This document shows positions 3,641 to 60,723 of a DNA stretch of 64,000 bases, piece by piece. The notes below the pieces were generated by a model. That model saw only the letters and a list, made by a program, of their open reading frames with translations, was not told where the DNA came from and did no database searches. The position numbers were made by a program, and so were the translations under genes. The DNA lies in NCBI GenBank assembly GCA_052327205.1, contig CM126224.1, forward strand, positions 29,078,001 to 29,142,000, written 5' to 3'. How positions within the stretch are numbered: position 1 is the stretch's first letter; every line of letters begins with the position of its first letter. Origin of the DNA: Somniosus microcephalus. Its lineage: Eukaryota.

Positions 3641-3862
3641 TCAAATAAGCCTTTCTGTTGGTGGAGGCTTCATTATGTTCCACATCTCCACCCTTGCTCC
3701 ATCCTTTTCCTGCCGACTGGGGCTATAGGTTCCCTGGGTTGCCCTCTTCTTTCGCATAGTGATCACCAGAACTATGATGGCGATGATGAAGATGACAAGA
3801 CCTCCAGCTGCAGCCACAGAACCAGCGATAATGGGAGTATCATTTCTCTGGGTGGTTCCTTT
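3641..3862 (-). CDS. Terminal exon B: transmembrane + CRB1-type cytoplasmic tail (GTY, ERLI)
   Basis: gttctacaacag|AAA GGA ACC, phase 0; [73 protein letters not shown]; intact and the same 73-aa length as exon A. Confidence 0.88.
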
Positions 3863-4901
3863 CTGTTGTAGAACATTACCATTGAGTAAAATGGAAGTGA
3901 GAAAGTTACACGGTTTGTTGTCCTTGTCCAGCAATGTGTATCTGGACTCAAGTAACAAATCCTCATCCTGACCTTACTGGGAGATTTTTCACCAACAGCA
4001 GTTTGTTCATAGAATAGGCAGGGACAGAGTCTGTCAGTAACAACTGTTGATGCAACAACATAGGTGCTTTCAAGCTGTGTACAGACTTGCTCATAGTGAA
4101 CTTGCCTTTAATTAGACATGGAAAAGATAAGACAATGACATCAGACCCAAAAAAGATTACTTCTATCCATTTGCGTAAAGAACACCATCACGGAATGTTA
4201 ACATGGAACCCTTTTCCAGCATAACCCTATATATAGATTTGGACAAATGCCTCCTTCATTAACACATAGTTCAGATTTTTTTTTAGATTAAATCAATTTA
4301 AATTTCAAGGCTACATGGCATTCTATCTTTAAAAAAAAAACACATGGTTCACTTAAGACTTAAAATTACTTTAAAAGTTCATTTAAATAAAAAAAAAAAT
4401 ATTTCCACCATAATTTCATATCAGTCAGAACACGAGCTTATCTAAAAACTTTTCAGTAAAATGCAACATGCTGGCGAAGGATTAGAATAATTGAATGGGA
4501 CACCTGTAAAAGCTACTTCTGAGACGGATGTGATCTTAGCAGAGGTGGTGATGGATCATATGAATGGGAATGCTTGAATCTGTCTTGGTTGACTGCAGTA
4601 GATAAAAAAAAGTTACATGTCATTCATGTGACATTGCAATGAGCAGCATACTCGGCGTGAATTTCCCCACTAGATGTTTCACTAGCTGCAGTTACTGTGA
4701 GAAAATTGCACAGCCAACATAAATTGGATTATATCAACCTCTCGGTGAAGCAGATGCCTAGAATGAGAGAATTTTCTCGGTGTATCAGAAGAATCCGTAG
4801 TCGTGAGCAGGCATATTGCTGAAGAAATGCTACCTGTAATGTCAGATATGAGGTCTACTCAAAACTAGAGCATCTTTTCCTCTAAGCGTTCAATCAAGCA
4901 A

Positions 4902-5123
4902 TCATATCAAGCGCTCTTCGGGTGGCACTTTAAGGACACTATCCATCTCCAGTCGAGCCCCAGCCACTTCCTGTTGGCTTGGATTGTACGTCCCTTCTGT
5001 CTGGCGCTTTTTACGGGCAGTAAGAACCACAAAAATAAGAGCTATTACAATCAGCAGCACACTCCCACACACCACCGGCACAGCTACTGCCAGCAACGGG
5101 ACAGGGTCGGCCATTTTCCCTCT
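4902..5123 (-). CDS. CRB2: Terminal exon A: transmembrane + CRB2-type cytoplasmic tail (FERM-binding GTY, PDZ-binding ERLI)
   Basis: cattgtctttacag|AGA GGG AAA ATG, phase 0; [73 protein letters not shown]. Confidence 0.95.
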
Positions 5124-6884
5124 CTGTAAAGACAATGGGAGACAATAAGTGGGCCGCAAACCACTGCAGATTCTGTTAAATGCATTGTTCATAGTAACCT
5201 CTCCCTCTCCTTGGAATCGACTAAAATTATATGATGCAGATACCAGAAGCAAAAGCACAACAGACAGGGAAATCATACAGAGCATTGTTAATAAAACAGT
5301 AACAGTGTGAACACACCAAATTAATAATGTGGCCTGGAGTACCTTAAAGTAAACAATCATTGACCCATGCCAGTGGCACTTGTGAGATTTATTCAGAGAA
5401 AGTGTGGCACAGATTTACTTATTGCTTGTACTTTTGAGAAATCTCATTCTTCATCGGTGGAATGAATTTTGTGTCCATTACAACAGTCCCCCACCACTTG
5501 TCCCGGCCCCAGATACATACCTGAATGATCTACTCACACATAAACAGAAGAATGTCCCACTTTCAGTGGGCTTGTACAGGATTGAGCCAATTGATATACA
5601 GGTATGCTTATCATCTGGAACAAAAGGAGAACTTTCGGCATTAGTTGGGTCCTCGGTGTCTGTAAATTTCCAGTGTAGTTACAGAATGATTAAATCACGT
5701 GTCATCCTGCCACTTGTTCTATTCCACTAAATTATTCTTCATATGATGAACATTTAAAGGGATCAATAACTTAAAAAGACCAAAATGAAGTTCTAGCACC
5801 GAGGCCTGGCTATTCCAGCACGAGCCTGTTCTGAAAATCTCTCTCAAATGGGAAGTGTCCTTTTAAGTAAATTGGTGACTTTAGTTTAAATTAAAAGGTT
5901 TATTGTACATCCTTGTGAACATGGGATTGTGTTGTGATTTTCCACACAAGTTTCACCAGGTTATTTGGGGAGGGGGCTGAAGGGCAACTCTTCAACAGAG
6001 TTAAGGTTTTAGACCATGAATCAACCTGCACTGTTCTTATGGATGGCATGTGGTTACATATTGGAAATGGGTCATCTGTCTTTCCTCTCAGCATTGGAGT
6101 TGTGCACAAAGGGGAGGTTATACTCTAAAGAAGAGCAAGAGTGATGGTTCCTCTCTCTCAAAAAGAGAGATGGCTCCTCCAGTACCATAGTTGTAAATGG
6201 ACCACAAATTGTGGTACTCAGCCATTTGGACCAGAAAGGCCCCACTTTGTGCTAAATTAGCTGATCACATCTAATCTGTTTGTGGGTGCCACAATTGGTC
6301 TCCATGTTTTTGGATTAAGGAGGGAACTAATCTGCCAATATTCTGGCTGCTGTTCTTGATCCAATGATGATGATGGAAAGTGCATCTGTGTGGATGTCTG
6401 GAGAGGATAATAATGTGGATGTAATGTCCCCATGGTAAAATTACCTGCTAACCCTAAGTACACAGGAAGAATGGCCACTTGTGGAAGACACGGGTGCCCA
6501 CTGAGCCAACCTTCTCAGCAGTATACTTCATTTCTAAAACCTCACCTCTGCACTTCGAGAAGTTGGAGGTTGAATTGCAAGGTGGATATTTGTCTGTTTA
6601 ATTAATCTACCAGAATTGTAGGAAAAACAGCTAAGTGCTCTTGGAAAGACCGTCTTGAGGAATTTATCATATTCCGATTGAGTCCTGGGTACATCACAAA
6701 ATCTGAGCCAACTAAATTAGCTCTCCAAGGTGCTGCAAATGCTTCCCTCCCCTCCCCAGCATGTGGTGACACCCAAAATGTCCCCTGTATTTTGCCCCGA
6801 TAGTCACAATATTATGCAAAGTTTGTAGTAAGGCCAAGAAGTAGGTTTAGCTGCCAAACTCTTGGTAATCTGACCTTACTTGTA

Positions 6885-58752: not shown

Positions 58753-58935
58753 CTGTAAAGCCAAGCTGACAAAGGCAAATGTAGCCAGATGCATCAGCAT
58801 AACTGAATGTCGACTTGAATTGTGAGAGATTGCCATAATAATCTTGAGTGGAGCGTTCCAAACATGTGCCATTATTCATACAAGGCTCCAGCATGCATTC
58901 ATTGATATCAACTTCACAGTGTGGTCCAATGTAAC
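58753..58935 (-). CDS. CRB2: Crumbs-family internal exon (183 bp, EGF with the Crumbs-typical insertion)
   Basis: tttcaacag|GT TAC ... TTT ACA G|gtcagc; GYIGPHCEVDINECMLEPCMNNGTCLERSTQDYY...GYICLCQLGFTG; phase 1-1. Confidence 0.92.
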
Positions 58936-60583
58936 CTGTTGAAATGGATACAAATCGCAAACATTAGATGCTTGTATTATAATAATTCATAGCATTTAGT
59001 GACCTTATGACCCTGACAGGACTATTCCAAGCACCACAACCAGTGTTGCTGATTGCTCATCACATGGTACTGAAAATAGTTAGTACTAAAGCATTATTTA
59101 CACAGCAATTAATAGTAGCAGTTCAGAACTCTAATAAATGTGGCCGTATGGTCCATTAGCAGCATGGTCGAGTCCCAGACTAACATGGAGAGAAACAGGA
59201 GATCACAAAGATGAGTATGGAGGGTGAAGCCAGGTGGCCCATCCAGCTCATCTTACCATAGAAACCTATGGCCCTCTCTTCCTTCCATCCATCACAGCAC
59301 ATAATGGTCCCTTAAGAAGGCAGGTAAGAACATAGGAGGAGGTTGGCTCCAGCTACCTTCCTTGGTTCCGTAACTCTTAATAACTTTGCCTAACAAGAAT
59401 CTACAAATCTCGGTTTTGAAATTTTCAATTGACAGCTTTGTGGGGAAGAGAGTTTGGTCACTTAGACACTCCCTTATCTATCACATTAGTTACCTCCTCA
59501 AAAATAATCAACTAGGTTCGTTAAAGCTGACTTACCCTTTACAAATCCACGCTGGCCCTCTCTGATCAGTTCATGTTTGTCCAAGTGCTCAGTCACTCTG
59601 TCCCTAATAACAGGTTCTGTGAATCTTGAATGATTCACCAAACCTTTGCCTCCACAACCCTACCCAGAAGACATTTCTAAGTATTCATCAATCTTCCCAA
59701 TGCCAAAGCAGCCTTTTGCAAGATCACAGGATATTTATGGATGAATTGCCCATCTTAATTCATCCATCCAGAAAACCCCTGCAGTCCCTCATAGCTGCAT
59801 CTAATTGTTTTCTGAATAATTTACTTCCACTAAATAAAGAGAGGCTAATGTCTCTACTTAAAATGTCGCCCTGTCTTTTATCTCTTCGGATGCTGATGGG
59901 CCTGTTGAGTATTTTTAGCATTTTCACTTCATGTTTGAGAGAAACTGAGTTAGAAACTACCCTCAACTAACATTTGACCTCTGTTACCAGTTCTTGACTG
60001 GGACCAAGCCTTTGGGTTAGTGACAGCATTCCCACCTCTAAGTCAGACAGTGCAGGTTTCGAACCACACTCCAGACACTTTCGGCGAGCGGAGATTGAGC
60101 TCCGGCTCTGAATTCTGGGTTGACATTCAGCATGATGCTCATTTCTAATGGGTGTGGGTGGCTCCGTCAACGTATAGGACTAACCACCTTGTATGAAGAT
60201 GGTTACGGCCCCGGAAGGAGCGTTCACGTTGCAGCCTCATCCTGTGAATCTGTGAATCCTTCCAATCCAAGGGAAGAGTGTAAAGATACAAAAAACAAAC
60301 AAACTAGTTCTTGACTGGGTTGCTGGATGGATGGAGCACTTTTAAGGTGTGAAGCCAGAAAATCTTTGATGTAGACAAATGGACCGCTTGTCAGTTAACA
60401 AGATGGTTGTTATTCAACAAGTTTTAACAGTGATTTTCACAGAAAAAACCATTGAAGATAATTGGAAAGTTAACAATGTTACTTGACTGCAAGCTTTCTG
60501 GAAAAGATGTAGATAGAATCGATGTTTCTGTCGGTTTGATATTGCCCACCCTCTCCCTTTCGCTCCCCCTGATGCATACTCAC

Positions 60584-60723
60584 CAGCCCAGCAGAGGCAA
60601 GTGTAGTTCTTCACTCCTTCCAGACAAGTGGCGTTGTTAGCACAGGGATCGGATGCACACTCCAAGATGTCTATCTCACAGTTCTTGCCTAGAAATCCTG
60701 TATCATCGCAGTTACACATGTAA
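60584..60723 (-). CDS. CRB2: Crumbs-family gene, internal exon (140 bp, EGF repeats); more 5' exons lie beyond the window
   Basis: Minus strand tttctgtag|T TAC ATG TGT ... TGG GCT G|gtgagt; encodes YMCNCDDTGFLGKNCEIDILECASDPCANNATCLEGVKNYTCLCWAG; phase 2 to 1. Confidence 0.9.

Follow-up and report, generated by a model that had tools for sequence, protein, structure and literature searches.

Alternative starts and endings of Crumbs genes have been described in mouse and zebrafish, and here they are compared with a Crumbs gene in 64,000 nt of genomic DNA of the shark Somniosus microcephalus (G000:C23:29078001-29142000; hereafter the window), in which all Crumbs exons lie on the minus strand. 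The short form of zebrafish crb2b was reportedly described by Zou in 2012 (cited in PMC7044448). The available portions of PMC7044448 describe a transcription start inside an intron of crb2b, which yields a short ectodomain (crb2b-sf) and rises in the adult eye; they contain no second tail or read-through end for this gene. In the available portions of PMC7335077, the first and last exons of mouse Crb1-B are mainly used together, and a long-read table gives 36,872 reads for a 1003-aa form and 506 reads for a second form, of 1033 aa and 8 exons, that shares its start; this second form we take to be the Crb1-B start joined to the ERLI tail. Crb2 is absent from the main text of that paper (0 occurrences); among its nine long-read rows for mouse Crb2, eight start with the full-length N-terminus, whose 5′ end is also that of the ninth.

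Our reading, in which we are fairly confident, is that the window gene is a shark CRB2 with three predicted endings, options that it likely inherited from the gene that existed before the CRB1/CRB2/CRB3 duplications. The window spans the 3′ three quarters of the gene. Nine minus-strand exons, all with AG/GT ends, splice into a single open frame, and joining these core exons to either of two last exons, tail A or tail B, gave 3433 nt with a single terminal stop each way; this confirmed the claim of an earlier note on this DNA that the core exons run in one open frame to either ERLI stop. The full-length start lies outside the window, with exons 1–3 (G000:C23:29245929, 29159398 and 29149217) situated 7 to 104 kb past its end. 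By window position, the features are as follows.

60584..60723, minus strand: core EGF exon, fourth of the gene (exons 1–3 lie beyond the window end)
58753..58935, minus strand: core EGF exon
55517..55630, minus strand: core EGF exon, 114 nt
48685..48736, minus strand: candidate internal first exon (ATG to phase-1 donor, 17 hydrophobic codons), of CRB1-B / crb2b-sf type
37951..38886, minus strand: core exon with two EGF repeats, laminin G 1 and a further EGF repeat; its acceptor is common to both starts
29853..30412, minus strand: core exon, laminin G 2
28311..28476, minus strand: core EGF exon
23785..24652, minus strand: core exon, laminin G 3 and EGF repeats
21485..21601, minus strand: core EGF exon, 117 nt
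16700..16826, minus strand: last EGF exon, whose phase-0 donor at 16700 is the switch point of all three endings
16580..16699, minus strand: read-through tail, 39 codons, moderately hydrophobic, without GxY or ERLI, of CRB1-B type
4902..5123, minus strand: tail A exon with transmembrane segment, GTY and EERLI, the canonical CRB2 tail; proximal acceptor
3641..3862, minus strand: tail B exon with transmembrane segment, GTY and TERLI, the type of the mammalian CRB1 tail; distal acceptor

All three C-termini proposed in the earlier note were found in the sequence. The tail A and tail B exons measure 222 nt each, are both in phase 0, and each encode one transmembrane segment, GxY and a C-terminal ERLI. 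Splicing of donor 16700 to the proximal acceptor at 5123 would give tail A and leave tail B, which falls within the 3′ untranslated region (UTR) of tail-A transcripts; splicing to the distal acceptor at 3862 would give tail B, likely with the same 3′ end. Since both ERLI tails keep GxY and ERLI, a switch between them would, from established Crumbs biology, tune rather than abolish binding of FERM and PALS1-type partners. Left unspliced, the same donor opens into the 39-codon tail with its stop at 16580, which on its sequence is a CRB1-B-type read-through at the last EGF exon without the conserved motifs, and would give a membrane anchor lacking FERM- and PDZ-binding motifs. Over its whole length the exon chain aligned with public Crumbs models, and exon 1 was located upstream, in line with a long-form Crumbs that has a signal peptide, EGF repeats and three laminin G domains. 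The joined frame was identical to shark model P0286 at 1013/1143 residues, to P0139 with tail A at 983/1142 and to P0285 with tail B at 981/1142, the last with an identical junction; there were no frame breaks, and overall identity to public shark proteins was 86–89%. Upstream of tail A its frame remains open for 97 codons into the intron (5414-5124). This extension, which contains a hydrophobic segment, had no match among proteins and may be chance.

The evidence for an old origin comes mainly from the other Crumbs loci of this genome. A genome search with tail A gave five matches, comprising two tandem pairs, in the window and at C3 (the CRB1 locus, see below), and one single tail at C31. 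The C3 tails (C3:261546626 and 261547092) stand in the same order, A then B, both in phase 0, and the last EGF exon of C3 also reads through, into a tail identical to that of the window at 25/36 residues. Agreement between the paralogues at fourfold-degenerate positions was 7/20 in tail A, 5/15 in tail B and 3/8 in the read-through, compared with 13/42 and 12/37 in core exons, where silent sites are saturated; because the modules resemble the core exons in this respect, recent conversion is excluded. In a tail tree of 48 rows and 66 columns (this tree and the ectodomain tree of 31 rows were built on chosen rows out of the matches), the 15 B tails were monophyletic (98/100), and so were the 21 A tails (94/93, not starred). 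Sampled invertebrate models have a single tail of intermediate type. Tail clustering by type rather than by gene, together with saturated silent sites, makes it likely that the modules were present before the CRB1/CRB2 duplication. With the same modules present in the CRB1 paralogue, the proposal in the earlier note that the locus preserves a pre-duplication architecture thus likely stands, and the modules were likely lost reciprocally after that duplication.

The two ERLI endings were also widespread among public models. A search with tail B yielded at least 82 matches from the best 200 candidates, of which 78 were of CRB2 subtype, from frogs, salamanders, turtles, lizards and birds, with no mammal among those listed, and four of CRB1 type. 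All seven tail-B models of CRB2 subtype that were placed in the ectodomain tree fell in the CRB2 clade. Many of the matches are public 'CRB2 isoform X2' models, and many of the bird ones are named CRB1. In Heterodontus, model X1 ends in tail A and X2 in tail B with the same junctions, and sparrow model P0001 carries tails A then B in tandem. Tail B is therefore not shark-specific, as it also ends CRB2 of amphibians, reptiles and birds, and its description as CRB1-like held only in that it is the type of the mammalian CRB1 tail. Five CRB1 models of sharks and chimaera end in tail A. A protein search with the read-through tail returned one match among two candidates, a CRB1-type fragment, and an Atlas search returned generic EGF clusters only. 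Given the X1/X2 models, the isoforms themselves are already within automatic annotation; the pattern of twin tails across genes and its reading were absent from the literature listings. We found no account of tandem Crumbs tails in literature listings and the openings of abstracts, a coverage that did not extend to subscription papers, and the available portions of PMC11129452, PMC7108746 and PMC5676222 do not mention them.

The earlier note had also claimed two N-termini. The full-length start stood, with its exons beyond the window, and the internal one remains a candidate. A first strict scan for an internal start found no site, and a looser scan gave four sites in the window intron and three in the paralogue intron, so the filter alone is not specific. 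The candidate at 48736-48685 encodes 17 codons plus one base up to a phase-1 donor, and joined to 38886 it yields an open frame of 981 aa with the read-through ending and of 1015 aa with tail A or tail B. When the 120 possible phase-1 donors of this intron were compared, it gave the best match to the candidate of the C3 paralogue, an ATG-to-phase-1 exon in the corresponding intron that ends in the same three residues. One GGATTA site lies upstream, which is within chance. Judged on sequence, this is a candidate exon of CRB1-B type, and an internal promoter giving a short ectodomain is likely; by analogy with mouse, the short ectodomain would probably be paired with the read-through end in photoreceptors.

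Several results weigh against our reading. In the reciprocal test, the start candidate of the C3 paralogue ranked only second of 126, and the DNA upstream of the two candidates was not similar (score 23, below at least 10 of 45 control windows). The read-through tail reached a best 19-residue hydrophobicity mean of 1.36, compared with 3.1–3.2 for tails A and B. Tail B is not known from mammalian CRB2, as judged from the best 200 candidates, and the public X2 models are automatic annotation. The 30 proteins looked up, of which 26 were picked by eye from 150 listed or from other searches, yielded no tail that could be assigned to lamprey, hagfish, tunicate or amphioxus; the ancestral state is consequently drawn from jawed vertebrates. 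Neighbouring genes were assigned by family only, and the ectodomain and tail alignments have long outgroup branches or few columns. The remaining points of this kind, an unobserved junction and two topology tests, are given with the alternatives that they favor.

The alternative that survives best, although we consider it unlikely, is that the layout is ancestral and partly vestigial, so that this shark would make only the full-length tail-A form and leave tail B, the read-through and the internal start unused. A 6601-nt contig of run X1, which comes from another organism and is RNA only by a guess, covers 3000-5123 unbroken across tail B and departs precisely at the acceptor of tail A. Over the bins of two upstream exons its depth was 5.1 and 3.2, as expected if the exons alone were covered at depth 20. 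Position 5123 is likewise the end of a contig of run X4. We infer a spliced message that ends in tail A and carries tail B in its 3′ UTR, so that A versus B would be a choice between proximal and distal acceptors. No read or contig contained the 16700-3862 junction, the read-through or the internal start, in a junction listing filled with repeats, and the start candidate is weakly supported as described above. On the other hand, tail B has retained its in-phase acceptor and a complete transmembrane segment, its cytoplasmic part is up to 92% identical to frog models, and it is conserved while silent sites between the paralogues are saturated; the read-through tail likewise resembles that of the paralogue, and the runs come from unspecified tissues. 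Two same-species RNA runs, X21 and X22, had near-zero depth on the tail exons in the 24% and 31%, respectively, of each run that were read, and are uninformative on tail use. A one-sided pile of their reads (depth 6.5 and 33) was seen at window 4328-4991 with almost empty flanks, possibly a small repeat or a short RNA. The up to six isoforms of the earlier note found no support, as the one long transcript-like contig uses tail A and start and end are mainly paired in mouse; some three or four main forms are likelier than free combination into six.

We regard it as improbable that the last exon was duplicated separately in the CRB1 and CRB2 lineages, the B tails being alike by convergence or through gene conversion long ago. 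In its favor, the tail is a short sequence under constraint, and an approximately unbiased (AU) test did not reject a clade of CRB2 tails A and B (p=0.116), a result that is expected from only 66 columns. The best tree nevertheless joined B with B, tail order and phase are alike in both genes, and the two genes have the read-through tail and the start candidate in common, all of which favor the single, older duplication of our reading.

The gene itself is most likely the 1:1 shark orthologue of CRB2. A DENND1-type exon lies downstream on the opposite strand at all three Crumbs loci of the genome (C23, C3 and C31). C23 in addition carries a DZF-family gene upstream of Crumbs, at 29.60 Mb, and a PSMB7/10-type exon past DENND1, at 27.93 Mb; the only ASH-domain (ASPM-type) match of the genome is on C3, 0.23 Mb from the paralogue, so the ASPM / DENND1B neighborhood of CRB1 was not found at C23. 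The C23 neighborhood fits the human order, which we take to be STRBP-CRB2-DENND1A-PSMB7, and that of C3 fits what is presumably ASPM-CRB1-DENND1B. These neighbors identify C23 as CRB2, C3 as CRB1 and C31 as CRB3, and thus the synteny comparison that the earlier note had proposed came out for CRB2. Seven of the nine core exons were closer to tetrapod CRB2 than to CRB1, two were tied (58935-58753 and 24652-23785) and none favored CRB1, and window tail A, called CRB2-like in the earlier note, indeed fell in the CRB2 tail clade (99/94).

That the gene is instead a further ohnologue, or closer to CRB1, and lost in mammals appears very improbable. A quick ectodomain tree, also proposed in that note, placed the window in the CRB2 clade (Shimodaira–Hasegawa-like approximate likelihood ratio test, SH-aLRT, 96) and C3 in the CRB1 clade (100), but grouping the window clade with CRB1 was not rejected by the AU test (p=0.445), so this tree is not decisive by itself. 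The public shark orthologues, moreover, are named 'crumbs homolog 1-like'. Against this, among 119 matches of the laminin G 3 exon in the genome only two were full-length, so no other CRB2 candidate was found, and neighbors, the tail A clade and exon-wise identities point to CRB2. The closest shark models (1466–1467 aa) also match turtle and frog CRB2 (1474 and 1471 aa) in length, which argues against the separate long-ectodomain ohnologue that had been suggested. The supposed mosaic orthology likewise dissolves, since the modules look CRB1-like because mammals serve as the yardstick. The naming of many bird models with a CRB2-type B tail as CRUM1 is a further instance of tail-based naming that misleads. 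An assembly chimera or recent conversion that put a CRB1 tail behind CRB2, the refuting case raised in the earlier note, has a negligible chance of being correct: nothing was found in its favor, and it is refuted by another shark with both forms, by contigs of two other organisms that span both tails and by the divergence of the window tail B from the CRB1 tail B of this genome (33/71 identical), and the tandem tails of the sparrow model also speak against it.

The C3 locus also bears on the origin of CRB3. The CRB1 paralogue has, in its last intron and 1.3 kb before tail A, a short serine/threonine/asparagine (S/T/N)-rich exon with a phase-0 donor (G000:C3:261545212-261545281; L028:5212-5281). 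This exon shares 53% identity with the N-terminal portion of a chimaera 'CRB3' model, which itself ends in the CRB1-locus tail A. CRB3 at C31 has a short S/T/N-rich exon of like kind, and in the tail tree tail A of C3 was sister to the CRB3 tails (99/96). No such exon was found in the last intron of the window gene, nor by tblastn with nine short models; the top score for an S/T/N-rich exon was 0.25 in the window, without an N-glycan site, compared with 0.59 at C3 and 0.44 at C31. A short exon followed by tail A at the CRB1 locus suggests that CRB3 is likely such a short unit, belonging to a CRB1-like locus. About 0.6–1 kb upstream of the C3 short exon there is a GC-rich, promoter-like stretch that contains a donor. 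Tarpon, eel and mudskipper models (P0140, P0191 and P0228) combine a diverged tail of type A with a B tail of CRB1 type, and one of them is named 'Crumbs homolog 3b', which hints that teleost crb3b may be a CRB1-locus short unit.

Taken together, these comparisons suggest that features separating human CRB1, CRB2 and CRB3 began as splice options of one ancestral gene. Before CRB2 parted from the CRB1/CRB3 ancestor, one tail exon of the invertebrate type would have undergone tandem duplication; in mammals, tail A would then have stayed on CRB2 and CRB3, and tail B, with the short read-through form, on CRB1. We lean, slightly, toward a still wider version, in which the pre-duplication vertebrate Crumbs was a multi-option locus with a full-length and a photoreceptor start, a read-through and two ERLI tails, joined by a CRB3-type start after the first duplication. 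In that version mammalian CRB1, CRB2 and CRB3 are its frozen splice forms, CRB1-B is older than CRB1, sharks still make a second form of this kind from CRB2, and most non-mammalian vertebrates switch the CRB2 tail by splicing. If true, this would be a clean case of paralogues partitioning the splice options of their ancestor, in a disease-gene family, and a motif-less photoreceptor form would have been retained on two paralogues for a very long time. Tail sequence would be a false guide to orthology, as in the many bird and shark CRB2 models named CRB1 or CRB1-like; CRB2 knockdown and rescue work in frog and chick would have involved two different cytoplasmic tails; and how 'CRB1' and 'CRB2' tails differ in function would be testable on one natural ectodomain. 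The tail difference is also relevant to swapping CRB2 for CRB1 in retinal therapy.

Some further observations concern the remainder of the locus. The donors of the EGF exons at 58753 (GTCAGC) and 55517 (GTACCA) are weak and are possible skipping sites. Two minus-strand runs of EGF repeats lie 35–65 kb upstream of exon 1 (G000:C23:29281783-29282155 and 29310430-29310825; L063-L066); as extra upstream ectodomain exons these runs, at 29.28 and 29.31 Mb, were rejected, since their frames are broken and exon 1 lies downstream of them. The introns contain a short-unit tandem repeat, a 1.8-kb pyrimidine/purine tract and reverse-transcriptase-like retroelement fragments (window 24693-25442, 33337-35185, 31197-31994 and 41109-42089).

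Compared with known systems, the window gene most closely resembles vertebrate CRB2 as modeled in Heterodontus, Xenopus, axolotl, turtle, lizard and birds (X1/X2), with the same exon chain, length class and tails A and B. Unlike these models, the window has in addition preserved a CRB1-B-type read-through tail intact; the only three models seen to continue beyond this donor, from birds and turtle (P0023, P0054 and P0075), have unrelated residues there. Mammalian CRB1-B, according to the available portions of PMC7335077, has an internal start before the laminin G 1 exon, where the window has its candidate, and a motif-less read-through end like that in the window sequence, and the coding length of its first exon in mouse equals that of the window candidate, 17 codons plus one base. 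The mammalian CRB1-A tail is of tail B type, whereas in the shark it is the CRB2 orthologue that carries these modules, along with a second ERLI tail. The zebrafish crb2b start is reported in intron 7, and the window candidate lies in intron 6 by our count. The CRB3 tail and tail A of C3 are of type A like window tail A, but both loci have a short S/T/N-rich exon before it that the window lacks. The Drosophila Crumbs tail (PDB 4wsi) carries GTY and ERLI, its first half resembling tail B and its end resembling tail A; Drosophila Crumbs has this one tail only, in contrast to the tandem pair of the shark gene.

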